From: Escherichia coli
Lineage (GTDB): Bacteria > Pseudomonadota > Gammaproteobacteria > Enterobacterales > Enterobacteriaceae
NCBI RefSeq assembly: GCF_016903815.1
Contig: NZ_CP069973.1
Direction: 5' to 3' (one strand)
DNA length: 64,000 nt
Below are positions 1 to 61,609 of the stretch, in pieces (position 1 is the stretch's first letter; every line of letters starts with the position of its first letter). The notes under the pieces were generated by a model. It was given only the letters and a program-made list of their open reading frames with translations. It ran no database searches and was not told where the DNA came from. Made by a program: the position numbers and the translations under genes.

Positions 1-112
1 GTGAAAAAATAGCATGTTTATCCAGTTCAACAGCTCCAACCAAGTTGAAACCGGCTCGAGTTGCCCCTAAGCTTAAACCGCCAACTCCAGAGAATAAATC
101 AACTACATTCAT
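1..112 (-). CDS. DNA (cytosine-5) methyltransferase, N-terminal 37 codons only (gene runs leftward out of the window)
   Basis: Reverse complement of 1..112 reads MNVVDLFSGVGGLSLGATRAGFNLVGAVELDKHAIFS: the FxGxGG AdoMet-binding motif I and the following E-x-D-K motif of C5-MTases. Start codon is complement of 110..112. Confidence 0.6.
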   Translation of the reverse strand, partial: MNVVDLFSGVGGLSLGATRAGFNLVGAVELDKHAIFS

Positions 113-394
113 ATTCAAATAACCATGCTAAAGATTCAACTAACGATCATGTATTCTATCATGACATCAGTCATTGTCTAAAGCCATAGTTGCTTTAAAA
201 GTTGAATCAAACTAACAATCCCTTAATGTGAGAAAGTGATTTTTCGGATGATTAATAGCCACGCTCCAGCCCCCTGAAGTTCCCAATTTGCTGCTGATGG
301 TCATTTTGAAAAACTCAAAGCAAGTGAACGACAGTTACTCTCTCCAAGCTCCGACCATCCAAACGAACAATGTAATCCTATGCAATTATATCAG

Positions 395-2500
395 CTAGCC
401 ACTTATCTTCTCTTGCCGAGTAAACATTGGCAAATAATGCTTTAATGTGTTTCTAAACACTCTGACGACCTCTGGGTCACTCCATTCGATAACACCGTCA
501 TCAACCAGATTAAGCACTGCTGCGGCGTGCTCAGAAGGTGTGGGAGCCGGTAACGAAGTATCACCACCAGTGAGCTTTCCACAGTTATTGACAGGACTCC
601 GAGGCGCGGCGATGCCGCTTTTTAAAGTCAAAGGCTCAACGACCGGAACTTTCGGCACAATGCGCCAGTCCGTCGTTCTGGTGATATGAATATGACGCGC
701 GCCGAGATGCGGCGCGTAAATGCCGACCACTCTCTCGACTTCTTCCTCGTACTCGTTAACGTCATCCGACGGGCTACGGGCAACCCTGACAGTCTGACAA
801 TCGCGCGGGACATTTGCCCCACCCTGCGCGCTGATATACAACGCAAAATCACCACTGTCTGCGGCAGCGCGAGCAGCCTCGACGCGTTCGTCAAACTCAT
901 CAGCAATACTGACGCCGCGAGGCAATTTGCGTAGTTCACGGTAAGCCCCCATTGTCGGCAGTCCAACCGTTTTAAATTGCGGGATGCGCCACGTTGACGC
1001 CCATGCAGTAACAGCCGCGGCAGTATCTTTCAGAGGTCTGCCGGTATCGTTATCGAGCTGACCATCCAGTGCATAGCCGTCGATGTTTTTTGAGATGTAT
1101 TTCGCGATATACCCCGCAGCACCGCCCCGGTTAAGGTGTTTTGCCTGAAAACGGTTTCGCGCGGCTCCTCTTTCGTCGCCATCCTCTTTGAGCGCATAGC
1201 GACGCATGATTTCGATAATCTGGTTACGCTGGCGCGGATTACAAAAAAGCATCATATGCCAGTGCGGCGTTCCGTCGTGGTGTGGCTCGACGACACGCAA
1301 ACCGTAGACCTGTAAATCATTATCCTTGAATGCCGTGCGCATCAGGCTCCAGATACGGCAGAGATAACGCTGCGCATCCTTTGGATTAAATGCCTCATCG
1401 TTCCAGCCGTGATTTAGCTGGACGGTTTTACTTTCGCCTTTTCTGACCTGACGTGTCGGGTGATACTTTGACGGCGCGGTCAGCGTGATAAACATCCCCA
1501 CATCACCCTCTGCTGCGGCGTAACGCTCAATACCGGCAATGGTGTTCATCAGCTCCATCCGGCGAATTTCAGGATTAGAAATACTGCCCATCACCTTACT
1601 GATAAGGTCGATGCGCTCGCCGGTTTCCCTGTTTTCGAGATCACACGATTTAAGAAATTCCAGATTTGCCTGGCGGCGTGCACGCACATCACGAATGGCA
1701 TGTTTACTGGCATAAGGAGAACGGTCTTTATTGACCTCCCCGACAGCAATCAGTAACGCCTCATGCCAGCGCATACGCTGGCCTTTAAGCTGATGAGTCC
1801 ACCACTCATCGTTAAACAGACGGGCAATGGCAGAATATGCCTGCCTCGTGGTCATCTGCCCTTTACGGTATTTTTTCCAGTAGAGAGGGGATATATTGAA
1901 AGCACGTGCAGCGCCAGCAACATGACCATAGAGGTGAGCCTGCGCCTCATCCGTAAACAGCGATTCTTTTTCGCCATGCGCATCCACCCAGGCATCGCTG
2001 AGTTCCTCATACATCATGAAAAGCTGCGATGAGATACGGGCAGCAAACTTTTTCAGCTCCTTGTCATTCATTCCCGGCAGGCGCGCATAGTGGTCACGCT
2101 CTGCCAGAAACAGTAACGACGCGTCGGTGTTCATTTCATGGCGCTGATTCACACGCTCAATGCGCGGCCATAAACGGCGCTGAAAAGTGGATGTGAGGAA
2201 ATAAAACCCGTGCACCGGGCTTTTATTGCGCCGGATGTAGTCATAGCGTGAAGTAAACAGCGAACGCAAAAAGTAAGGCAGGCGGTTAATCGTGGATAAA
2301 ACACCTTGCACCTGACGCATCTCGTCACGTGTAAGGGGTCTTTCGCGCCCGACAGCCTCGCGTGGCGCGCTCCATGCATAAGCACCGGTAAACGTCTTAC
2401 CGGTGCCTGCAGCAAATGCTGACGGAGGGACAAAACGCCCGGAGGCTTTAATGGCCATATGAGCCAAAAGCCTCTGAACAACGCTTGCTGAGTTGCTCAA
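395..2500 (-). CDS. P2 gpA-like replication initiation protein (701 aa)
   Basis: Large ORF at the distal end of the cox-B-A early operon; size and position as for P2 gene A. Confidence 0.7.
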   Translation of the reverse strand: MSNSASVVQRLLAHMAIKASGRFVPPSAFAAGTGKTFTGAYAWSAPREAVGRERPLTRDEMRQVQGVLSTINRLPYFLRSLFTSRYDYIRRNKSPVHGFYFLTSTFQRRLWPRIERVNQRHEMNTDASLLFLAERDHYARLPGMNDKELKKFAARISSQLFMMYEELSDAWVDAHGEKESLFTDEAQAHLYGHVAGAARAFNISPLYWKKYRKGQMTTRQAYSAIARLFNDEWWTHQLKGQRMRWHEALLIAVGEVNKDRSPYASKHAIRDVRARRQANLEFLKSCDLENRETGERIDLISKVMGSISNPEIRRMELMNTIAGIERYAAAEGDVGMFITLTAPSKYHPTRQVRKGESKTVQLNHGWNDEAFNPKDAQRYLCRIWSLMRTAFKDNDLQVYGLRVVEPHHDGTPHWHMMLFCNPRQRNQIIEIMRRYALKEDGDERGAARNRFQAKHLNRGGAAGYIAKYISKNIDGYALDGQLDNDTGRPLKDTAAAVTAWASTWRIPQFKTVGLPTMGAYRELRKLPRGVSIADEFDERVEAARAAADSGDFALYISAQGGANVPRDCQTVRVARSPSDDVNEYEEEVERVVGIYAPHLGARHIHITRTTDWRIVPKVPVVEPLTLKSGIAAPRSPVNNCGKLTGGDTSLPAPTPSEHAAAVLNLVDDGVIEWSDPEVVRVFRNTLKHYLPMFTRQEKISG

Positions 2501-2723
2501 CCTGCGCGTTTAAATCAGCAAAAGACTTTGCGCTTCCGGTCAGAATATCGTGATGCATCAGGCCGGAAACGAGCTGGCTTAATTTCGGGTAATAACCAAC
2601 CACCGCCAGCCACTCCTGACCGGCGTTTTTACCGCTTTCCGCTCTCTTTTTCTCATGGAGAATAAACTGAAAGCTGTCACTGGTAACGACATAACGTTCG
2701 CCAATTTCTATACGAATGCTCAT
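2448..2723 (-). CDS. Hypothetical phage early protein (orf83 position)
   Basis: 91-aa ORF in the early operon, overlapping the A start; no recognisable motif. Confidence 0.4.
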   Translation of the reverse strand: MSIRIEIGERYVVTSDSFQFILHEKKRAESGKNAGQEWLAVVGYYPKLSQLVSGLMHHDILTGSAKSFADLNAQVEQLSKRCSEAFGSYGH

Positions 2724-2944
2724 GCCATTCTCCGGTAATGTTTGTTTTTTGCTTCAAAGACTGACTGACAGGAAACACAACGCGTGGCTGACGGATAAGC
2801 CGCACGACGGGCAGCAGGTATTGGCACGTCACACTCTTCACAAACCAGCGCAGAAGCACCGCAATGTTTTACCCTTGCCGCGTTAATCTGGCGCTCCAGT
2901 AATTCAGCCTGCTGTTCCTGAATAAAATCCACGTTGTCCGGCAT
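2720..2944 (-). CDS. TraR/DksA-type C4 zinc-finger protein (orf82 position)
   Basis: 74 aa with CEECDVPIP...ATRCVSCQ, two CxxC pairs typical of phage TraR/DksA-like proteins. Confidence 0.55.
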   Translation of the reverse strand: MPDNVDFIQEQQAELLERQINAARVKHCGASALVCEECDVPIPAARRAAYPSATRCVSCQSVFEAKNKHYRRMA

Positions 2945-3249
2945 TACCAGCTCCTTTTGTCGTTCAGCTTCTTAAATTCATCAGCGCAATAGCTGGCGAT
3001 TTCTGTCGTTAATTTCGTCAGTTCATCCACGGAGGAGATTTGCTTATGAAATACAGCGCGTTTAACAAGTAAATTGACCACATCAGACAGGAGGTTTAAT
3101 TCGTTCTGATAAATCGCGATAACAGATTCAGTTATTTCGCGTTTTTCTTTATCAAGACCAAGTTGAATAAGAGACAAATCGCCATTTTTCATAACGGCGA
3201 TTTTTAAGGCATTGTTCAGTAATACAACTGAATGAGAACAGGACATCAA
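2944..3249 (-). CDS. Hypothetical phage early protein (orf81 position)
   Basis: 101-aa ORF, start overlaps stop of the upstream ORF. Confidence 0.4.
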
Positions 3250-3503
3250 AGCACCTCCCCGCGAGACAACCCGATATTGTGAAATTTTTCCGACTCCTGA
3301 CTGAGCAGCTCGACTATCTCCACGCGGGATAACTCCGCCTTTGTGATATGGCGAATCATGGCGTCAAGATGAGAAGAAAAGCGCGTCGCTGCGTCGGCCT
3401 GTGCTTCGGTTCTGGCCTGTTGCAGCAGTAATGCGTATTTACCGCACTGATTTTCAGAAACTGTATGCATGACTTTCTCCAGGCAAAAAGAAGCCCCGCA
3501 CAA
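3246..3503 (-). CDS. Hypothetical phage early protein (orf80 position)
   Basis: 85-aa ORF, 4-nt overlap with the next ORF. Confidence 0.4.
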
Positions 3504-3533
3504 TTAAGTGCGTTAAAAACTCTGGTTAATTAC

Positions 3534-4034
3534 TTAATGCAGATATTGCTCTGGTTTTACCGATGTCAGAATTGTCGGTGCATACTCAAACAGACTGAAT
3601 AATTCACGTAATGCACGGAATAAAGCTTCACGCCAGTAACATGATTCTTCATTAATTCGCCAGTATGGCTGGTTAAATTCTTTTTCTGTCAGTCGTGCGT
3701 GCATAAATAAAGTGCGGCGCTGACTGACAGTTAAAAAGCTAATATATGCATACTCACTTGCACCGACCTGACGGCGTTTTGAGAATGCCCCACGCAATTC
3801 ATCAATTGCACAAACCAGCCGTTCACGTTCGACGTCGTTCATTTCTTCAAAACGCATCGTTGCGTGACGTTGTTTTAACTGCGCATGAAAGCAAACTGTT
3901 AGCCGTTCGCGCTCCATCATCTGATTATAATAATCACATGTCTCCTGCCAGCGAGGAACGGCAAGATGCTTACCAATTATCCGGCGCATAGTTGCTGGCT
4001 GTTTTTCAACGAGATTGAGCGTCATCACTGTCAT
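3534..4034 (-). CDS. P2 gpB-like replication protein (166 aa)
   Basis: Exact size and position of P2 gene B between orf78-like and orf80-like. Confidence 0.6.
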   Translation of the reverse strand: MTVMTLNLVEKQPATMRRIIGKHLAVPRWQETCDYYNQMMERERLTVCFHAQLKQRHATMRFEEMNDVERERLVCAIDELRGAFSKRRQVGASEYAYISFLTVSQRRTLFMHARLTEKEFNQPYWRINEESCYWREALFRALRELFSLFEYAPTILTSVKPEQYLH

Positions 4035-4225
4035 TTCCAGCCCCTCCGGCTTTTCAGAAAGGTCAGAGCCTTCTTTAACGGACTCTGTTTTTTGGTGCGG
4101 ATAATGATTCCCTTGCGTCCCTTCCCGTGGGTGATGGTGAAGTCAATCGCCCTGGGGCTTTCGTTACGCAATAACTGAGCAATACAACGAGGCTCATTCA
4201 TACGGTTCTCCTTAACGTGGTTCAC
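4031..4225 (-). CDS. Small phage early protein (orf78 position)
   Basis: 64-aa ORF (56 aa from an internal Met) between cox and B. Confidence 0.35.
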   Translation of the reverse strand: MNHVKENRMNEPRCIAQLLRNESPRAIDFTITHGKGRKGIIIRTKKQSPLKKALTFLKSRRGWK

Positions 4226-4487
4226 CGAGACCTAACCACATCAACCAGCCGTCACGAATCTCTTTAGGACGGCTTTCATAAGCCAGTTTTAGTCCGTTAT
4301 TCCATGCCGGAATGTATACCCAATATTCACCAGCACGCCCCGATACTGACTGAGGGTCAGTAATCTCAATAACTGGTAATTTCCCTTTCTCAATCATGCC
4401 CCTTACAGCTCTTGGAGTTTTACCAATGAGTTTTGCAAACTCCTGATAAGGCACGGCATCAGTCACGCTTACAAGCTGTCTATTCAT
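4212..4487 (-). CDS. cox: Cox-like excisionase / transcriptional regulator (91 aa)
   Basis: First gene of the leftward early operon, divergent from the C repressor; 91 aa as for P2 Cox. Confidence 0.6.
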   Translation of the reverse strand: MNRQLVSVTDAVPYQEFAKLIGKTPRAVRGMIEKGKLPVIEITDPQSVSGRAGEYWVYIPAWNNGLKLAYESRPKEIRDGWLMWLGLGEPR

Positions 4488-4608
4488 CTGCTACGATTCT
4501 CCCTTAGTGCTTCTAATGGCTCCTAATGGCTAATTATTGCCTAAAAGGATAACTCCAGAAGCACAACATTTCACACCATCAGCAAGAAATTACGCAATCG
4601 GAGTAATT
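4488..4608. promoter_or_regulatory. Divergent early/repressor promoter region (lysis-lysogeny switch) with direct-repeat operator candidate
   Basis: 121-nt gap between divergent cox and C; direct repeat CTAATGGC at 4513..4520 and 4523..4530, one helical turn apart. Confidence 0.45.
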
Positions 4609-4908
4609 ATGTCAATAGACGTTTCGGAGAAGTTGAAGCTAATCCGTGAATCTGAAAGGTTAAACCGTAAAGAATTCAGTGAATTAACTGGTGTAGCCTA
4701 CAGCTCACTTTCGAGCTATGAGAGCCGGTCAAAAAACGCTGGAGTTGAAGCCATAATGAAGGTCTTACAACATCCCAGATTTACTAAATATACTTTGTGG
4801 TTCATGACTGATCAGGTAGCTCCAGAAGCCGGGCAAATTGCGCCCGCTCTCGCACACTTTGGGCAAAACGAAACAACGTCGCCCCACTCCGGTCAAAAGA
4901 CTGGTTAA
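4609..4908 (+). CDS. C: C-type immunity repressor (99 aa from internal Met; track ORF starts at 4537)
   Basis: MSIDVSEKLKLIRESERLNRKEFSELTGVAYSSLSSYE has an HTH-like segment; size and position as P2 C immediately upstream of int. Confidence 0.6.
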   Translation: MSIDVSEKLKLIRESERLNRKEFSELTGVAYSSLSSYESRSKNAGVEAIMKVLQHPRFTKYTLWFMTDQVAPEAGQIAPALAHFGQNETTSPHSGQKTG

Positions 4909-5023
4909 CAATTTATCGTGAATATATTCATCACAAGTGCCTACTATTGGTGGCTAAATTTCAGCCACCACGAAAAAAGCGATTAGTAGTAGCAAAAAAA
5001 AGTACCACTCGGAGGGTTTTCTG

Positions 5024-6037
5024 ATGGCAATCAAAAAACTCGATGATGGTCGATATGAAGTGGACATTCGCCCTACTGGACGTAACGGAAAACGCATCCG
5101 TAGGAAGTTTGATAAGAAAAGCGAAGCTGTCGCTTTCGAAAAATACACGTTGTACAACCACCACAATAAAGAATGGCTATCAAAACCAACAGACAAACGA
5201 CGTCTGTCGGAACTGACACAGATCTGGTGGGATTTAAAGGGTAAACACGAAGAGCATGGGAAATCTAATCTTGGAAAAATTGAAATCTTCACAAAAATAA
5301 CGAATGACCCATGCGCATTTCAAATCACGAAATCCCTTATCAGCCAGTACTGCGCCACCCGAAGAAGTCAGGGTATTAAACCTTCGAGTATCAATCGTGA
5401 TTTAACATGTATTAGCGGCATGTTTACAGCCCTGATTGAAGCGGAGTTATTCTTTGGTGAGCACCCTATCAGAGGGACAAAGAGGCTTAAGGAGGAAAAA
5501 CCAGAAACAGGCTATCTCACACAGGAAGAAATTGCCTTACTGCTTGCAGCACTTGACGGCGACAATAAAAAGATTGCGATTCTTTGCCTGAGTACAGGAG
5601 CACGTTGGGGAGAAGCAGCTCGTTTGAAAGCAGAAAATATCATCCATAACCGCGTCACGTTTGTTAAAACGAAAACAAACAAACCACGCACCGTCCCGAT
5701 CTCAGAGGCTGTTGCCAAAATGATCGCGGATAACAAACGAGGTTTTTTATTCCCTGATGCTGATTACCCTCGCTTCAGACGAACAATGAAAGCAATAAAA
5801 CCGGATTTGCCAACGGGGCAAGCCACACATGCACTAAGGCACAGCTTTGCCACTCATTTCATGATTAATGGAGGAAGTATTATCACGCTACAACGGATAC
5901 TAGGTCACACGCGGATTGAGCAAACTATGGTTTACGCTCATTTTGCGCCAGAGTACCTTCAGGACGCCATTTCTCTTAATCCGCTAAGAGGTGGTACTGA
6001 AGCCGAGAGTGTCCACACAGTGTCCACAGTAGAGTAA
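5024..6037 (+). CDS. int: Tyrosine recombinase, P2-type integrase (337 aa)
   Basis: C-terminal HALRHSFATHF...LGHTRIEQTMVYAHF carries the R/H-x-x-R/Y catalytic signature; 337 aa as P2 Int. Confidence 0.9.
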   Translation: MAIKKLDDGRYEVDIRPTGRNGKRIRRKFDKKSEAVAFEKYTLYNHHNKEWLSKPTDKRRLSELTQIWWDLKGKHEEHGKSNLGKIEIFTKITNDPCAFQITKSLISQYCATRRSQGIKPSSINRDLTCISGMFTALIEAELFFGEHPIRGTKRLKEEKPETGYLTQEEIALLLAALDGDNKKIAILCLSTGARWGEAARLKAENIIHNRVTFVKTKTNKPRTVPISEAVAKMIADNKRGFLFPDADYPRFRRTMKAIKPDLPTGQATHALRHSFATHFMINGGSIITLQRILGHTRIEQTMVYAHFAPEYLQDAISLNPLRGGTEAESVHTVSTVE

Positions 6038-12129: not shown

Positions 12130-14324
<2,195 letters not shown>

Positions 14325-20703: not shown

Positions 20704-21504
20704 TCACCACCAGGCGTGGAAGTGGTGAACCGGACCAATACCGTGACCAACTTCCAGCGTGTCGGCCTGGGCTAACGCCGATGAAAGCCAGCTTTTTGCC
20801 TCCTGTACGGTGTCAGCCCAGTTTGTATGGCGCGGGCGTAGTGCAGCCAACGCCGCAGAGAGCGTACAACCAGTGCCGTGGGTGTTTTGGGTCATAATGC
20901 GCGGTGCAGTAAATCGTTGTTCCCCCTCACGAGTAAACAGCCAGTCAGGGCTTTGCTCATCATCCAGATGACCACCTTTCATTAGCACTGCGCCACAGCC
21001 CATCGCCAACAGCGATCGCCCTTGTTCCAGCATTTCCTGTTCGGTGCGCGCGTGTGGCGCGTCGAGCAAGGCAGCAGCTTCGGGCAAGTTTGGCGTTATT
21101 AATGAAACCTGTGGCAATAATCGACTGCGCAGCGTAGCAACCGCCGAAGGTGAAAGCAGCGGGTCGCCGCTTTTTGCCAGCATAACGGTGTCGAGTACCA
21201 CGTTTTGGATCTGATAACGTTGCAACCGTTCTGCCACCGCTTCAACAATATCGGTTTCCGCCAACATACCGATTTTAGTGGTGTCGATTCGCACATCGCT
21301 GAACACCGAATCGAGCTGGGCGGCGACAAAATCAGGCTCAATGCGATACACCGACTGTACGCCACGGGTATTTTGCGCCACCAGTGCAGTAATCACTGAG
21401 CAACCATAAGCGCCAAGTGCCGAGAAGGTTTTAAGATCGGCCTGAATCCCCGCACCACCACTCGGATCAGTACCGGCAATCGTCAGAGCGTTAATTCGTT
21501 TCAT
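20704..21504 (-). CDS. thiD: Hydroxymethylpyrimidine/phosphomethylpyrimidine kinase
   Basis: 266 aa, [21 protein letters not shown]-terminus typical of ThiD. Confidence 0.9.
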
Positions 21505-22289
21505 GCCTGCACCTCCGGCGTCAATTGCCAGAGCGCATCAAGGAAATGTGGAACAAAACTGCCTGGCCCCTCGCTACTGGCGACTGCGCGTTCTCCGGCT
21601 TGTTTCATCCAGTGACAGGCAGATGCGATATTTTCCAGCGTATCGCCTGGTAGCGCACAACAGGCAGCGACAACCGCCGATAATGCACAGCCAGTTCCTA
21701 CCACTTTGGTCATTAACGGATCGCCACCGTGAATACCAATGATACGATGTCCATCGGTAACATAATCCATCTCGCCAGTGACCACGACGATTGCGCCAGT
21801 TTCCCGTGCCAGTGTTTGTGCAGCGGGTATCGCATTAGCTGCGGCGTCAGTGGTATCCACTCCCCGTCCACCATTAGCAACGCCAGCTAATGCCATGATT
21901 TCCGAAGCATTACCACGTATGGCGGTTGGCTTATGAGACAGAAGTTCCAGACAAAAACGGCGGCGATAATCGAGTGCACCCACCGCTACTGGATCAAGCG
22001 TCCAGGGTGTTTGAGAGCGTTTTGCCTGTTCAATGGCGGCACGCATCGCCTGTGCGCGTGGCTGCGTCAGCGTGCCAACGTTAATCAGCAACGCACTGGC
22101 GATAGCCGCAAACTGACTGGCCTCTTCGGTTTCGATAACCATCGCTGGGGATGCACCGAGCGCCAGCAAGGTATTGGCAGTAAAGGTTTGCACCACATCG
22201 TTGGTCATGCAGTGCACAAGAGGGGAATGTTGGTGAAAAAGATGTAACGCGTGCGCAGATTGCGCGGAACTCAGCAGGTCGACTTGCAT
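21501..22289 (-). CDS. thiM: Hydroxyethylthiazole kinase
   Basis: 262 aa, 4-nt overlap with thiD. Confidence 0.9.
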
Positions 22290-22291
22290 AG

Positions 22292-22450
22292 TTTGCTCCT
22301 GCCATAACGTGAAGAAGCAATGACCTGGTGGTCCGTGACTTCCCTACGCTGGCATTATCCAGATCAGGTGATACGGGTATTTCTCAGCCTTCACGCAGAA
22401 GGGCACCCCGAGTCGTTTGATTGCGATGATAAATCGCAGAGGAGGATGGT
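22292..22450 (-). promoter_or_regulatory. TPP riboswitch (thi-box) in thiMD leader
   Basis: Minus strand reads GGGGTGCCCTTCTGCGTGAAGGCTGAGAAATACCCGTATCACCTGATCTGGATAATGCCAGCGTAGGGAA with the conserved CTGAGA; thiM RBS lies in the downstream stem. Confidence 0.8.
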
Positions 22451-22511
22451 AATGTCCAGCGCACGCGTTGTAAACGAGTAAAAACCGCAGTTTTACAATC
22501 GCGTTAATAAA

Positions 22512-22784
22512 TTATTTGATATAAGAATCCAGCACCTTCAGAACGACATCCAGATCTTCTTCACGTTTTAGCTCATCCCCCTGGTGAACGATGTGTTCCG
22601 TCAGATGACCTTTAATCACTTCCCGCATCAGACCGTTTACCGCGCCACGGATAGCAGCAATCTGTTGTAAAACTGCAGCGCATTCGTGCGGCTCGTCGAG
22701 CATTTTCTTGAGCGCCACGACCTGGCCCTGAATCTTACTGGCACGCGCTTTCAGTTTCTGTTTATCACGGATGGTATGAGACAT
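22512..22784 (-). CDS. rcnR: Ni/Co-responsive repressor (CsoR/RcnR family)
   Basis: 90-aa CsoR-like protein divergent from rcnA. Confidence 0.9.
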
Positions 22785-22832
22785 GGCAACACCTGGTTAA
22801 TAAGAATATGAAAAATCATAGCACTATTAATC

Positions 22833-22866
22833 TACTGGGGGGTAGTATCAGGTACTGGGGGGGAGT
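22833..22866. promoter_or_regulatory. RcnR operator sites in rcnR-rcnA intergenic region
   Basis: Two TACT-G6/G7-AGTA inverted repeats (TACTGGGGGGTAGTA, TACTGGGGGGGAGTA). Confidence 0.7.
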
Positions 22867-22904
22867 AGAATCAGATTGCCGAATTAATACTAAGAATTAT
22901 TATC

Positions 22905-23729
22905 ATGACCGAATTTACAACTCTTCTTCAGCAAGGAAACGCCTGGTTCTTCATCCCCAGCGCCATCTTACTTGGTGCGCTTCATGGCCTGGAACCAGGG
23001 CACTCAAAAACGATGATGGCGGCGTTTATCATCGCCATCAAAGGCACCATTAAACAGGCGGTGATGCTCGGACTGGCAGCAACCATTTCGCATACCGCAG
23101 TGGTCTGGTTGATTGCCTTTGGCGGGATGGTGATCAGCAAGCGCTTTACTGCTCAATCAGCAGAACCGTGGCTCCAGTTGATTTCCGCAGTGATCATTAT
23201 TGGCACCGCGTTCTGGATGTTCTGGCGTACCTGGCGCGGCGAACGAAACTGGCTGGAGAATATGCACGAGCATGATCATGAGCATCATCACCACGATCAC
23301 GAAGATCACCACGACCATGGACATCATCACCATCACGAACATGGCGAGTATCAGGATGCCCATGCACGAGCCCATGCCAATGACATTAAACGACGCTTTG
23401 ATGGTAGAGAGGTCACCAACTGGCAAATTTTGCTATTTGGCTTAACCGGTGGCCTTATCCCCTGCCCGGCAGCAATTACCGTGCTGTTGATATGCATTCA
23501 GTTGAAAGCCCTGACACTGGGCGCAACACTGGTCGTCAGTTTCAGCATTGGCCTGGCGTTAACGCTTGTCACCGTAGGCGTTGGCGCAGCAATCAGCGTT
23601 CAGCAGGTCGCAAAACGCTGGAGCGGATTTAACACTCTCGCTAAACGCGCCCCCTATTTTTCCAGTCTGTTGATTGGCTTAGTTGGTGTGTATATGGGCG
23701 TACATGGCTTCATGGGCATAATGCGATAA
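22905..23729 (+). CDS. rcnA: Nickel/cobalt efflux permease
   Basis: 274-aa membrane protein with His-rich loop HEHDHEHHHHDHEDHHDHGHHHHHEH. Confidence 0.9.
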   Translation: MTEFTTLLQQGNAWFFIPSAILLGALHGLEPGHSKTMMAAFIIAIKGTIKQAVMLGLAATISHTAVVWLIAFGGMVISKRFTAQSAEPWLQLISAVIIIGTAFWMFWRTWRGERNWLENMHEHDHEHHHHDHEDHHDHGHHHHHEHGEYQDAHARAHANDIKRRFDGREVTNWQILLFGLTGGLIPCPAAITVLLICIQLKALTLGATLVVSFSIGLALTLVTVGVGAAISVQQVAKRWSGFNTLAKRAPYFSSLLIGLVGVYMGVHGFMGIMR

Positions 23730-23947
23730 CTCAATCCTTTAGGCTTGCATGTTATCTTCAGCCCAGGATGATTCTTAAATCAGCTATTTCCGCTGACTCT
23801 CTGCTCGCTAAGGATGCTTTTAGGGCATCCTTTCATTTACACTTTTTACGAAATCATGGGATCACTAACAAAATATCGCTTGCCAGTTATATTGTATGGC
23901 AGGAAAGATATGCGACTGATATTACAGATCCCCAAAGTGGAGAGTTT

Positions 23948-24286
23948 ATGACCATTAAAAATAAGATGTTGCTGGGTGCGCTTTTGCTGGTTACCAGTGC
24001 CGCCTGGGCCGCACCAGCCACCGCGGGTTCGACCAATACCTCGGGAATTTCTAAGTATGAGTTAAGCAGTTTCATTGCTGACTTTAAGCATTTCAAACCA
24101 GGCGATACCGTCCCAGAGATGTACCGCACCGATGAGTACAACATTAAGCAGTGGCAGTTACGTAACCTGCCCGCGCCTGATGCCGGGACGCACTGGACCT
24201 ATATGGGTGGCGCGTACGTGTTGATCAGCGACACCGACGGTAAAATCATTAAAGCCTACGACGGTGAGATTTTTTATCATCGCTAA
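23948..24286 (+). CDS. rcnB: Periplasmic Ni/Co homeostasis protein (112 aa)
   Basis: Signal peptide MTIKNKMLLGALLLVTSAAWA; track ORF starts 60 codons upstream. Confidence 0.8.
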   Translation: MTIKNKMLLGALLLVTSAAWAAPATAGSTNTSGISKYELSSFIADFKHFKPGDTVPEMYRTDEYNIKQWQLRNLPAPDAGTHWTYMGGAYVLISDTDGKIIKAYDGEIFYHR

Positions 24287-41079: not shown

Positions 41080-43278
41080 ATGGACAAGGAATTACCGTGG
41101 CTGGCGGATAACGCCCAAGTGGAACTGAAATATAAAAAAGGCAAAACGCCGCTCAGCCATCGCAGTTGGCCGGGCGAACCGGTGCCTGTTATCACTGAAA
41201 GCCTCATCCAGACACTGGGTGATGAATTGCTACAAAAAGCTGAGAAGAAAAAAAACATTGTCTGGCGTTATGAAAATTTTTCACTGGAGTGGCAGTCGGC
41301 CATTACGCAGGCCATCAACTTGATTGGCGAACACAAACCCTCAGTTCCGGCCCGGACAATGGCGGCGCTAGCCTGTATCGCGCAAAATGATAGCCAACAG
41401 TTGCTCGACGAAATCGTCCAACAAGAGGGACTGGAATATGCGACTGAGGTGGTGATTGCACGCCAGTTTATTACACGATGTTATGAAAGTGATCCTCTGC
41501 TAGTGACATTGCAGTATCAGAACGAGGATTATGGCTATGGTTATCGATCAGAAACCTATAACGAATTCGATCTCCGACTGCGTAAGCATCTCTCTCTGGC
41601 AGAGGAAAGCAGCTGGCAGCGTTGCGCCGACAAACTCATTGCCGCACTGCCAGGAATAACCAAAGTTCGCCGCCCTTTTATTGCTCTGATCCTCCCGGAA
41701 AAACCAGAAATCGCCAATGAGTTGGTAAGCCTTGAATGCCCGTGGACTCATTTTCATTCTAAGGAGTGGTTAAAAGTTGTTGCTATTGACCCCAGAGCGG
41801 TGAGAAAACTCGAACGCTACTGGAGCCAGGATATATTTAGCGATCGGGAAGCCAGCTACATGTCGCATGAAAACCACTTCGGCTACGCGGCCTGCGCTGC
41901 CCTTTTGCGCGAACAAGGACTGGCAGCCGTTCCACGCCTGGCAATGTATGCCCATAAAGAAGATTGCGGCAGTCTGCTGGTACAAATTAACCATCCGCAG
42001 GTCATCCGCACCCTGCTGTTAGTTGCTGATAAAAACAAACCCAGCCTGCAACGTGTAGCTAAATACAGTAAAAATTTCCCCCATGCGACGCTTGCCGCAC
42101 TGGCAGAACTGCTGGCGCTAAAAGAACCACCTACGCGCCCTGGTTATCCAATCATCGAAGACAAAAAGCTGCCTGCACAGCAAAAAGCACGTGATGAATA
42201 CTGGCGTACGCTGTTACAAACGCTGATGGCATCGCAGCCACAACTGGCAGAAGAGGTGATGCCGTGGTTAAGTACTCAAGCCCGGTCAGTGCTGAATAGT
42301 TATTTATCGGCACCGCCTAAAACGGTTATTGATAGCACCGATAACAGCCAAATGCCTGAAATCCTCGTTTCACCACCGTGGCGTAGTAAGAAAAAAATGA
42401 CAGTTCCACGTCTTGATTTGGCACCGTTCGAATTAACGCCGCAAGTTTACTGGCAACCAGGCGAACGAGAGAGGCTTGCCGCCACTGAGTCTGCCCGTTA
42501 TTTCAGCACGGAATCTCTTGCGGAACGCATGGAACATAAAAGTGGACGAGTTGTACTACAGGAGCTGGGTTTTGGAGATGATGTATGGCTGTTTCTGAAT
42601 TATATACTCCCCGGAAAACTGGATGCTGCACGCAATTCACTCATTGTTCAGTGGCATTACTACCAGGGGCGGGTTGAAGAGATCCTGAATGGCTGGAACT
42701 CCCCGGAAGCACAATTAGCAGAACAGGCGCTTCGCAGCGGTCACGTAGAAGTGTTAATTAACATATGGGAAAATGACAGCTACTCACGCTATCGTCGGGA
42801 AAAGAGTATCTGGAACCTGTATTTATTGGCACAGTTGCCGCGTGAGATGGCTTTGACTTTCTGGCTACGTATCAATGAGAAAAAGCATCTGTTCGCGGGT
42901 GAGGACTATTTTCTCAGTATCTTCGGATTGGATGCTCTACCAGGTCTGCTGTTGGCTTTTTCACATCGTCCAAAAGAAACATTTCCGTTAATTTTAAATT
43001 TTGGCGCAACAGAACTGGCCCTGCCCGTTGCCCGCGTCTGGCGACGTTTCGCGGCGCAGCGTGATCTGGCTCGCCAGTGGATTTTACAATGGCCGGAACA
43101 TACGGCTACTGCACTTATCCCTCTTGTCTTCACCAAATCCAGCGATAATAGCGAAGCTGCATTACTTGCCCTACGTTTACTTTACGAACAGGGACATGGT
43201 GAATTGCTGCAAACCGCGGCAAACCGCTGGCAGCGTACAGATGTATGGCCTGCCCCGGTCTGGCAAAACTGGTGCTGA
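41080..43278 (+). CDS. Third MolR/YehI-family paralog (732 aa), no WGR module, ends at TGA
   Basis: Aligns to YehI residues ~100-800 (LPWLA, LRLRKHLSLAEES, PEKPEIA, VSPPW.SKKK blocks); starts 10 nt after yehI stop with AAGGAAAGA RBS; no P-loop. Confidence 0.6.
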   Translation: MDKELPWLADNAQVELKYKKGKTPLSHRSWPGEPVPVITESLIQTLGDELLQKAEKKKNIVWRYENFSLEWQSAITQAINLIGEHKPSVPARTMAALACIAQNDSQQLLDEIVQQEGLEYATEVVIARQFITRCYESDPLLVTLQYQNEDYGYGYRSETYNEFDLRLRKHLSLAEESSWQRCADKLIAALPGITKVRRPFIALILPEKPEIANELVSLECPWTHFHSKEWLKVVAIDPRAVRKLERYWSQDIFSDREASYMSHENHFGYAACAALLREQGLAAVPRLAMYAHKEDCGSLLVQINHPQVIRTLLLVADKNKPSLQRVAKYSKNFPHATLAALAELLALKEPPTRPGYPIIEDKKLPAQQKARDEYWRTLLQTLMASQPQLAEEVMPWLSTQARSVLNSYLSAPPKTVIDSTDNSQMPEILVSPPWRSKKKMTVPRLDLAPFELTPQVYWQPGERERLAATESARYFSTESLAERMEHKSGRVVLQELGFGDDVWLFLNYILPGKLDAARNSLIVQWHYYQGRVEEILNGWNSPEAQLAEQALRSGHVEVLINIWENDSYSRYRREKSIWNLYLLAQLPREMALTFWLRINEKKHLFAGEDYFLSIFGLDALPGLLLAFSHRPKETFPLILNFGATELALPVARVWRRFAAQRDLARQWILQWPEHTATALIPLVFTKSSDNSEAALLALRLLYEQGHGELLQTAANRWQRTDVWPAPVWQNWC

Positions 43279-43332
43279 CAGTGGGGCTTACAGCAGGCGG
43301 GAGAACAACTGCTAAAAACGGTTCTCACCCGT

Positions 43333-44772
43333 TTGCGCCAGCACCACTTGCCTGCTTCGACCGCGGATATGGCTGCCGCTCATCTGCATGCGATGGCGCT
43401 GGCACAGTTGCGCGGACATAAACTACCGTTACGCACTGACTGGCTGGATGCCATAGCAGGCTCGCTGATTAAAGAAGCCCTGAACGCGCCGTTGCCGTGG
43501 AGCTATCGCGGCGTTATTCATCCCGACACCGATCCGATTCTGCTAACGTTGATAGACACATTAGCGGGTGACGGATTCGGTAAACTTGCCCCTTCTACGC
43601 CACAACCGCCTCTGCCAAAAGATGTCACCTGCGAACTGGAACGTACCGCAATCTCTCTTCCGGCGGAGCTTACCTTAAATCGCTTTAACCCCAATGGACT
43701 AGCGCAAAGTCAGGTGTTACATCGGCTGGCAATACTGGAGATCCCAGGGATTGTACGCCAGCAGGGAAGCACACTGACACTTGCAGGCAACGGTGAAGAA
43801 CAGTGGAAATTAACCCGCCCGCTTAGCCAGCATGCGGCATTGATTGAGGCCGCCTGCTTTGGTGCCACACTCCAGGAAGCCGCACGCCATAAATTAGAAG
43901 CCGATATGCTGGACGCGGGTGGAATCGGCAGTATCACCACATGTCTTAGCCAGGCGGCGTTAGCGGGTCTGGCGTCCTTCAGTCAACAATTATTGGAGCA
44001 ACTCACATTATTAATCGCCCAGGAAAATCAATTTGCCGAAATGGGCCAGGCGCTGGAAGTGCTATATGCCTTATGGCGGCTGGATGAAATTAGCGGTATG
44101 CAAGGCGCGCAGATATTACAAACGACGTTATGCGCGGCTATCGATCGCACGCTGTGGCTGTGTGAATCTAACGGCAGACCAGATGAAAAGGAGTTTCACG
44201 CTCACCTGCATAGCTGGCAGGCGCTTTGCCATATCCTGCGCGATCTACATAGCGGCGTTAATTTACCCGGCGTTTCTCTTTCTGCGGCGGTAGCCTTACT
44301 GGACCGCCGCAGTCAAGCGATTCATGCCCCGGCGCTGGATCGCGGCGCGGCTCTTGGCGCACTGATGCGTCTGGAACATCCCAACGCCAGTGCCGAAGCG
44401 GCGCTGACAATGCTGGCGCAGTTATCCCCGGCACAATCCGGCGAAGCGCTGCACGGTTTGCTGGCGCTGGCCCGCCATCAACTGGCCTGTCAGCCGGCAT
44501 TTATCGCCGGTTTCAGTAGTCATTTAAATCAACTGAGTGACGACGATTTTATTAACGCCCTGCCCGATTTACGCGCGGCGATGGCCTGGCTACCACCACG
44601 AGAACGCGGGACGCTGGCGCATCAGGTGCTTGAGCATTATCAACTGGCGCAACTTCCCGTTTCGGCACTGCAAATGCCGTTGCATTGTCCACCACAAGCC
44701 ATTGCACATCATCAACAACTCGAACAGCAGGCACTGGCATCGCTGCAACACTGGGGAGTTTTCCATGTCTGA
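43333..44772 (+). CDS. Ala/Leu-rich protein, start uncertain (TTG 43333 or ATG 43369); same frame as upstream paralog
   Basis: 479-aa ORF unrelated to the MolR C-terminal domain; overlaps yehP start by 8 nt. May correspond to the C-terminal part of K-12 yehM (recollection, unverified). Confidence 0.5.
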   Translation: MRQHHLPASTADMAAAHLHAMALAQLRGHKLPLRTDWLDAIAGSLIKEALNAPLPWSYRGVIHPDTDPILLTLIDTLAGDGFGKLAPSTPQPPLPKDVTCELERTAISLPAELTLNRFNPNGLAQSQVLHRLAILEIPGIVRQQGSTLTLAGNGEEQWKLTRPLSQHAALIEAACFGATLQEAARHKLEADMLDAGGIGSITTCLSQAALAGLASFSQQLLEQLTLLIAQENQFAEMGQALEVLYALWRLDEISGMQGAQILQTTLCAAIDRTLWLCESNGRPDEKEFHAHLHSWQALCHILRDLHSGVNLPGVSLSAAVALLDRRSQAIHAPALDRGAALGALMRLEHPNASAEAALTMLAQLSPAQSGEALHGLLALARHQLACQPAFIAGFSSHLNQLSDDDFINALPDLRAAMAWLPPRERGTLAHQVLEHYQLAQLPVSALQMPLHCPPQAIAHHQQLEQQALASLQHWGVFHV

Positions 44773-45901
44773 ACTGAACGATCTTCTGACCACCCGTGAG
44801 CTACAACGCTGGCGATTAATTCTTGGCGAAGCGGCAGAAACGACGCTTTGTGGGCTGGATGACAACGCCCGGCAGATAGACCACGCGCTGGAGTGGCTGT
44901 ATGGGCGCGATCCTGAACGGCTCCAGCGTGGTGAACGCTCCGGTGGATTAGGTTGCTCAAATCTCACCACCCCTGAGTGGATCAACAGTATTCACACGCT
45001 GTTTCCGCAACAGGTGATTGAACGGCTGGAAAGCGATGCCGTACTGCGCTACGGCATTGAAGATGTGGTGACGAATCTCGACGTGCTGGAACGTATGCAG
45101 CCTTCTGAAAGCCTGCTACGCGCCGTTTTGCACACCAAACATCTGATGAATCCCGAAGTACTGGCTGCCGCCCGCCGGATAGTACGCCAGGTTGTTGAAG
45201 AAATTATGGCGCGACTGGCAAAGGAAGTTCGTCAGGCTTTTTCTGGTGTCCGCGATCGCCGTCGCCGCTCATTTATTCCACTGGCGCGAAACTTTGATTT
45301 CAAAAGTACGCTGCGCGCCAACCTGCAACACTGGCACCCGCAACACGGCAAGTTGTATATCGAATCCCCCCGCTTTAACAGCCGCATTAAACGCCAAAGC
45401 GAACAATGGCAACTGGTCTTACTGGTTGATCAAAGCGGATCAATGGTGGACTCGGTGATCCACTCAGCGGTGATGGCGGCCTGTTTATGGCAGTTACCCG
45501 GTATTCGTACCCATCTGGTGGCGTTTGACACCAGCGTGGTTGATCTCACGGCAGATGTTGCCGATCCGGTAGAGTTATTAATGAAAGTGCAATTAGGCGG
45601 CGGAACCAATATCGCCAGTGCCATGGAATATGGTCGGCAACTTATTGAACAACCAGTGAAAAGCGTCATTATCCTCGTGAGCGATTTTTACGAAGGGGGT
45701 TCATCATCATTACTGACGCATCAGGTGAAAAAGTGTGTCCAGAGCGGCATCAAAGTGCTGGGACTGGCGGCGCTCGATAGCACCGCAACACCTTGCTATG
45801 ACCACGATACGGCCCAGGCGCTGGTTAATGTCGGCGCACAAATAGCCGCCATGACACCGGGCGAGCTGGCATCATGGCTTGCGGAGAATCTTCAGTCATG
45901 A
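44765..45901 (+). CDS. yehP: von Willebrand factor A domain protein
   Basis: 378 aa from MSELNDLL; MIDAS-like DQSGSM...GGTN...SDF. Confidence 0.8.
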   Translation: MSELNDLLTTRELQRWRLILGEAAETTLCGLDDNARQIDHALEWLYGRDPERLQRGERSGGLGCSNLTTPEWINSIHTLFPQQVIERLESDAVLRYGIEDVVTNLDVLERMQPSESLLRAVLHTKHLMNPEVLAAARRIVRQVVEEIMARLAKEVRQAFSGVRDRRRRSFIPLARNFDFKSTLRANLQHWHPQHGKLYIESPRFNSRIKRQSEQWQLVLLVDQSGSMVDSVIHSAVMAACLWQLPGIRTHLVAFDTSVVDLTADVADPVELLMKVQLGGGTNIASAMEYGRQLIEQPVKSVIILVSDFYEGGSSSLLTHQVKKCVQSGIKVLGLAALDSTATPCYDHDTAQALVNVGAQIAAMTPGELASWLAENLQS

Positions 45902-60676: not shown

Positions 60677-61609
60677 TTAATCGTTCTGTGCCGTCTGCCC
60701 CGCCGCCGCCATTTGGGCGGCTTTTTGTTTTTTATAGCTCAACGCTGCTGCCGGAACAGGCATCACTTTACCGGTTTCAATCCAGGTACGCAGGCGGCTG
60801 GCATCGGCAAAATGGGTATATTTGCCAAACGCGTCCATCACTACCAGCGCCACCGGTTTATTATTGATAACCGTACGCATCACCAGACAATGGCCCGCCG
60901 CATTGGTAAAGCCGGTTTTGGTTAACTGAATATTCCAGTTATCGCGATACACCAGATGGTTAGTATTGCGGAACGGCAGCGTATACGTCGGGTTAGAGAA
61001 GGTTGCCATATCTTCCCGGGTGGTACTTAACTGCCCGATCAACGGATATTGTTTGCTGGCAATGAGCAGTTTGGTTAAGTCACGGGCGGTTGAAACGTTA
61101 TGCACCGACAATCCGGTCGGTTCAACAAAGCGCGTGTTGTTCATTCCGAGCGATTTCGCTTTCGCATTCATCGCCTTAATAAAGGCTTTGTAACCACCGG
61201 GATAATGGTGCGCAAGGCTTGCCGCCGCGCGGTTTTCTGAAGACATCAGCGCCAGCAACAGCATATCTTTACGGCTGATTTCGCTATTCAGTCGTACGCG
61301 CGAATAGACCCCTTTCATCTCCGGCGTCTGGCTGATATCCACTTTTAGTTTTTCATCCAGCGGCAGTCGTGCATCCAGCACAACCATCGCGGTCATTAAT
61401 TTGCTGATAGACGCAATCGGGCGCACCAGATCCGGGTGGTTCGAATAGATCACTTTGTTGGTATTCAGATCAACAATCATCGCGCTACCGGAGGCAATTT
61501 CCGGCTGTGAAGCGGTGGTAGCGGCTGCCGTTTTCGCAACGGCCTGCGGTGCAAAAGGCACAGCCAGCATCAGGGCCAGGCTAAATAAAGAAACTCGAAA
61601 TTTCGGCAT
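60677..61609 (-). CDS. pbpG: D-alanyl-D-alanine endopeptidase (PBP7)
   Basis: Signal peptide and SxxK active site (ASISKLMT). Confidence 0.85.

Follow-up and report, generated by a model that had tools for sequence, protein, structure and literature searches.

A reading of the letters alone had placed two control elements close together on a 64,000-nucleotide stretch of Escherichia coli DNA (hereafter the window): a TPP riboswitch in front of thiM, and a tandem pair of operators for the repressor RcnR between rcnR and rcnA. The question that this locus raises is whether the two elements are what they appear to be, and whether their proximity has any bearing on how the genes are controlled. 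We regard it as nearly certain that the region contains two independent and already characterised control elements, the TPP riboswitch and the RcnR operators. Together they provide a landmark for the yegX–thiDM–rcnRAB–yeh region of the E. coli chromosome and set the strand and register of the neighbouring genes.

Positions 2428687–2492686 of NZ_CP023820.1 (E. coli strain 7/2) and the window are identical but for one of their 64,000 bases, and the RefSeq annotation of that sequence gives thiM, thiD, rcnR, rcnA and rcnB together with a TPP riboswitch, as in the window. (The sole mismatch is at position 45657, which is T in the window and C in NZ_CP023820.1.) The NCBIfam scores of ThiM, ThiD, RcnR and RcnA all exceed the curated cutoffs of the models concerned, which are of the equivalog or subfamily type. 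In particular, the RcnR translation contains His3, Cys35, His60 and His64, which are the metal ligands of this protein, and rcnA and rcnB (22905–24286, + strand) are the genes under RcnR repression. The features of the locus are collected in Table 1.

Table 1 Genes, control elements and putative promoters of the thiMD–rcnRAB locus, with positions in the window.
Feature	Position	Strand	Content or evidence
thiD	20704–21504	−	NCBIfam TIGR00097, 361.5 bits; RefSeq
thiM	21501–22289	−	NCBIfam TIGR00694, 334 bits; RefSeq
thiMD operon (riboswitch-regulated)	20704–22289	−	NCBIfam and RefSeq
Expression platform	22287–22320	−	anti-SD UUGCUUCU 22320–22313; SD GGAG 22299–22296; AUG 22289–22287
TPP riboswitch aptamer (thi-box)	22324–22420	−	RF00059; RefSeq
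Putative thiMD promoter	22446–22474	−	−35 TTTACA (22474–22469), 17-nt spacer, −10 TACCAT (22451–22446); consensus scan
rcnR, 90 aa, Ni(II)/Co(II)-responsive repressor	22512–22784	−	NCBIfam NF011613 equivalog, 197.3 bits (cutoff 138)
Probable rcnR extended −10, TGCTATGAT	22815–22823	−	read from sequence and conservation
RcnR operator site 1 (rcnR-proximal)	22833–22847	+	TACTGGGGGGTAGTA; TACT-G6-T-AGTA, exact
RcnR operator site 2 (rcnA-proximal)	22853–22867	+	TACTGGGGGGGAGTA; TACT-G7-AGTA, that is TACT-G6-N-AGTA with N = G, exact
Probable rcnA −10, TAGAAT	22866–22871	+	overlaps the outer half of site 2; conservation
rcnA, His-rich efflux pump	22905–23729	+	NCBIfam NF007454, 560.5 bits; RefSeq
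rcnB	23948–24286	+	RefSeq annotation

When the whole window was scanned against Rfam with cmscan, two matches exceeded their gathering scores, and one of these was the TPP riboswitch model RF00059 in the leader of thiM (71.8 bits against a gathering score of 54.3, E = 3.6e-12). The match spans model positions 1–105 of 105 and reaches E = 4.5e-14 in a local scan; a permissive local scan of 22200–23000 detected no further Rfam family, even at E ≤ 1. RefSeq labels the identical 97 nt as a TPP riboswitch. In the aptamer, 22414–22411 closes on 22340–22337 to form the P1 helix, the pyrimidine-sensor CUGAGA is located at 22387–22382, and the pyrophosphate-sensor thi-box (22369–22347, consensus ACCUGAUC..GG.UAAU.CC.GCG) lies inside the P1–P5 helices. 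Every one of the pairs that we assigned by hand is Watson–Crick or G-U, and cmscan flags a non-canonical pair at the base of P1 and another in P3. The end of the aptamer is separated by 34 nt from the ATG of thiM, which is on the same strand. The leader thus scores as a TPP riboswitch well over the gathering score, and the thi-box aptamer that had been predicted upstream of thiM is borne out by the covariance model, by the RefSeq label and by the assignment of thiM itself through TIGR00694.

The window RNA occupies the same locus as, and shares the architecture of, the E. coli thiM TPP riboswitch (RF00059, THI element). Both contain the CUGAGA and ACCUGAUCUGGAUAAUGCCAGCG motifs and do without the optional P3a stem, and both form a leader 5′ of thiMD in which translation is controlled by an anti-SD/SD platform. 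Comparison with the K-12 primer sequence revealed one SNP (CAATC versus CAACC) in the 5′ hairpin of the leader, outside the aptamer, and nothing else of substance. Binding of TPP and repression have been reported for the E. coli thiM RNA (PMC1920254, PMC7815308).

Upstream of the aptamer a consensus scan identified a σ70-like block that, from the match of its hexamers, is the putative promoter of thiMD and is kept in other Escherichia species. Transcription is predicted to start at about 22439, which would give a leader of 150 nt up to the thiM ATG; the thiM 5′ UTR that Adams et al. 2021 cloned with primer CTGCGATTTATCATCGCAACC (PMC7815308 supplement) begins at this very base. To the 3′ side of the aptamer, constrained folding with the aptamer enforced produced an 8-bp helix between 22300–22293 and 22313–22320, in which the SD GGAG pairs with 22317–22314 and has a probability of being unpaired of 0.00. 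Without the constraint, the ensemble has the anti-SD paired to the 3′ half of the aptamer instead, and the unpaired probability of GGAG rises to only 0.28–0.41. As modelled, these mutually exclusive pairings would link closure of the aptamer to occlusion of the SD, which reproduces the published switch; the same switch model was set up by probing of the thiM RNA (PMC1920254). The unconstrained minimum free energy of the leader is no lower than that of shuffled sequences (z = −0.88), so that thermodynamic folding alone is not diagnostic of a riboswitch, whereas the covariance model is.

The pairings are consistent with a mechanism in which, without TPP, the 3′ half of the aptamer would pair with the anti-SD and leave the GGAG ribosome-binding site available. 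Binding of TPP would close the aptamer (22414–22337) and free the anti-SD, which would then pair with the SD and block translation of thiM. Published work indicates that the untranslated thiM mRNA is then also open to Rho-dependent termination. A Rho-dependent terminator has been described for thiM, and a Term-seq 3′ end flagged ‘riboswitch’ has been placed 41 nt upstream of the thiM ORF (both Adams et al. 2021, PMC7815308). This 3′ end maps to about position 22330 of the window, just beyond P1.

At the other end of the region, a search of both strands of the 64 kb for TACTGGGGGGNAGTA, with up to two mismatches allowed, returned sites 1 and 2 as the sole matches, both of them exact; shuffled windows gave a mean of 0.18 matches at this threshold, compared with the 2 observed. 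The sites form a 15-nt direct repeat (family D1) with a spacing of 20 bp from start to start, and both fall within the 120 bp that separate rcnR from the divergently transcribed rcnA. The published tandem RcnR operator reads TACT-G6-N-AGTA, as it is quoted from Iwig & Chivers 2009 in PMC3902906 and PMC7055735, and both G-tract palindromes of the window equal this motif. The flanking genes are identified by NCBIfam models, and the tandem operator pair of the original prediction is thereby confirmed. Its shorthand for the pair, TACT-G6/7-AGTA, is a fair one in that site 2 has G7, although site 1 reads TACT-G6-T-AGTA. The span that it gave for the two elements, 22292–22866, begins 3 nt before the start codon of thiM and ends one base short of the last base of site 2.

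The sites do not differ from the tandem type-1 operator of E. coli RcnR, which has the same two exact copies at 20 bp, each with one uninterrupted G tract between the arms of the inverted repeat TACT/AGTA. The type-2 operators of CsoR, in contrast, contain two short, interrupted G/C tracts and are bound by two tetramers, whereas the G6 and G7 tracts of the window are unbroken. As for FrmR, another member of the CsoR/RcnR family with an operator of its own, the regulator encoded next to the sites scores as RcnR (197 bits) and not as FrmR, with 76.5 bits on the FrmR model against a cutoff of 133.

We compared the operators with those at 80 rcnR loci of other species, drawn from one-genome-per-species bacterial contigs, in which RcnR is 76–100% identical and which extend from Escherichia to Morganella and Vibrio europaeus. 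With a slightly relaxed pattern, at least one RcnR site was found in 79 of the 80 loci and two sites in 65, and in 62 of these 65 the sites are exactly 20 bp apart. The commonest forms of the sites are the two of the window: site 1 reads TACTACCCCCCAGTA (rcnR strand) in 60 loci, and site 2 reads TACTCCCCCCCAGTA, with G7, in 73. On these counts (73 versus 60 of 80), the rcnA-proximal G7 site is better conserved than site 1 and, by the same measure, more constrained; it would thus be expected to contribute more than site 1 to the repression of rcnA. In an alignment of 31 intergenic regions the operator block is almost invariant amid freely drifting sequence; three more blocks are conserved, namely the rcnR extended −10, the rcnA −10 and the rcnA translation-initiation region. 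The tandem RcnR operator and its 20-bp spacing are thus kept across the Enterobacterales and as far as Vibrio.

The conserved blocks suggest how the operators are placed with respect to the promoters. Across the genera of the alignment the rcnR −10 block is kept as TGnTATAAT or TGnTATGAT, and from its position the −35 of the rcnR promoter would fall inside site 1. On the rcnA side, most genera keep AGTAGAAT past the end of the operator, and the two sites together would cover the rcnA core promoter. Transcription is predicted from these assignments to begin near 22808 for rcnR (− strand) and near 22878 for rcnA (+ strand). Hexamers assigned in this way are putative, and the overlap of the sites with both promoters agrees with the published description of a ‘shared operator’. 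The only + strand promoter-like match of the consensus scan (22876–22903) ends 2 nt before the rcnA ATG; we rejected it as a promoter, and it probably represents the conserved rcnA translation-initiation region.

Published work has established that apo-RcnR binds its operator and that Ni(II) or Co(II) releases it (PMC7055735, PMC7105576, PMC3902906). In the window, metal-free RcnR tetramers would bind sites 1 and 2, which are two helical turns apart and would overlap the cores of both divergent promoters, that of rcnA and that of rcnR. We propose that rcnA and rcnR are repressed because the sites overlap both core promoters. Binding of Ni(II) or Co(II) would cause RcnR to leave the DNA, and the RcnAB efflux system and RcnR itself would therefore be expressed.

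Individual loci depart from the common arrangement in several ways. In Escherichia whittamii Sa2BVA5 (locus L010, about 1420–1435), some 140 bp are deleted between 11-nt direct repeats, AACACCTGGTT and AACGCCTGGTT, that correspond to 22788–22798 and 22938–22948 of the window; the deletion takes the two RcnR sites, the promoters of both genes and the first rcnA codons and leaves the rcnR ORF intact. Three loci of Kosakonia and Phytobacter (L051, L054 and L066) contain, on the rcnR side of site 1, a third element that resembles an operator, AACTGGGGGGGAGTT; it lies about 20 bp away and so keeps the ~20-bp phase, and the intergenic region is longer to match. The spacing of the sites is 19 or 21 bp in three loci. 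In some species the G/C tract of a site has changed by one base (C6 or C8 for C7, or C5 for C6), which suggests homopolymer slippage; loci L012, L027, L050 and L080 show such variation in tract or spacing.

Could the elements nevertheless have arisen by accident, the G-tract palindromes as chance low-complexity sequence or promoter spacers and the leader as a chance match to the TPP model? We give this reading virtually no credence. Runs of G are simple sequence, and two matches with at most two mismatches arose in 2 of 100 shuffled windows; however, the two sites of the window are exact, are 20 bp apart and stand between rcnR and rcnA, and the pair persists at that spacing in 62 of the 80 orthologous loci while the flanking intergenic DNA diverges freely. 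The TPP match, for its part, has an E value of 3.6e-12, covers the full model and is directly upstream of a thiamine gene. Conservation of the operator pair thus refutes an origin by chance.

With both elements taken as genuine, there is the matter of their closeness, which had been predicted correctly. The aptamer and the operators lie ~410 bp apart because thiMD follows directly after rcnR on the same strand. Their proximity would be functional if transcription of rcnR induced by Ni or Co continued into the leader of thiMD, where the riboswitch would go on controlling translation, and such read-through is conceivable because rcnR and thiMD are co-directional and no terminator was found between them. 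Only 37 nt separate the rcnR stop codon from the thiM −35, and our scan of 22200–23000 detected no terminator-like site. The sole hairpin 3′ of rcnR (22465–22504), considered as an intrinsic rcnR terminator and rejected, is AU-rich, has no U tract and is no stabler than shuffled sequences (z = −1.03). A TPP riboswitch with thiM downstream of it is present at four other Escherichia loci and at one Erwinia MAG locus (L069), with scores of 69.8–72.2 bits, and the Erwinia locus is the only one outside Escherichia to repeat the order rcnR–TPP riboswitch–thiM. The lack of a terminator here says little, however, since the same crude scan found nothing 3′ of rcnR in 71 of 82 loci and terminators in 11; the supplements of Adams et al. 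2021 (PMC7815308) list no 3′ ends for rcnR or rcnA. The adjacency of rcnR and thiM, moreover, is missing in 72 of the 80 loci, that is, in all genera but Escherichia and the one Erwinia MAG. Even within E. coli, 477 of 5,424 matched genomes (~9%) have no single match over 80% of the query, and in the two such strains that we examined either a 2.27-kb island splits rcnR from thiM or rcnRAB is replaced outright. In addition, thiMD has a predicted promoter of its own, with a start at 22439, and nothing in the papers searched connected rcnR with thiM, a single seeming co-mention having proved to be the restriction motif ‘RCNRC’. We consider it improbable that derepression of rcnR by Ni or Co could send read-through transcripts into thiMD; if it did, the capacity for thiamine salvage would rise when cobalt harms the Fe–S enzymes of de novo thiamine synthesis. 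The closeness of the riboswitch and the operators is instead a matter of gene order, not of coupling. Nothing is new at either element: both match published elements exactly and were already known, as the original prediction had held in calling them established.

One more candidate was considered in this interval and rejected. A perfect 12-nt inverted repeat, GCAGTTTTACAA / TTGTAAAACTGC, joins 22487–22498 in the 3′ flank of rcnR with 22665–22676 in rcnR codons 37–40, and seemed too long to be expected by chance in 521 bp. In four of six other Escherichia loci (including those of E. albertii and E. whittamii), however, the repeat is broken by substitutions without compensating changes, and it has no equivalent in other genera. 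It is probably a product of chance, because it is unconserved even within Escherichia.

The junction just upstream of the thiM aptamer is variable. In strain 7784 (locus L002, 1729–4000), a 2.27-kb insert that encodes an HTH-like protein, a hypothetical protein and an outer-membrane protein replaces 22424–22513 of the window, with its breakpoint 3 nt from the aptamer. With the insert, this strain lacks the thiM promoter and the 3′ flank of rcnR seen in the window, so thiMD must use a different promoter there. Strain ET474 (locus L003, from 4215 onward) contains an E. coli B-type island in place of rcnRAB–yehABC, the first ORF of which matches a primer, ECD_02033, from the EcoBLMcrX locus of E. 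coli B; an island adjoining thiM had been identified in E. coli B (PMC5487053). The site just upstream of the thiM aptamer is thus a recurrent point of island insertion in E. coli. At the Erwinia locus (L069, 2501–3800; an uncultured Erwinia MAG), rcnR is followed by a spacer of ~110 nt that holds a TTTACA −35-like hexamer, a TPP riboswitch of 70.7 bits and a thiM that is 67% identical.

Elsewhere in the window, the second Rfam match above gathering is a Peptidase-S11 RNA (RF03039; 61614–61694, − strand; 72.8 bits against 34.8) directly upstream of pbpG (60677–61609, − strand), which encodes a D-alanyl-D-alanine endopeptidase. Positions 1–6037 constitute a P2-like prophage remnant adjoining yegR, with a partial DNA cytosine methyltransferase gene, a truncated replication endonuclease, a cox-family regulator, an HTH protein and an integrase (5024–6037). 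According to RefSeq, gatZ (12130–13387) is frameshifted, and the yehL–yehM region (41080–44772) holds two adjacent pseudogene pieces, one for a hypothetical protein that lacks its C-terminus and the other a DUF5682 gene with an internal stop.
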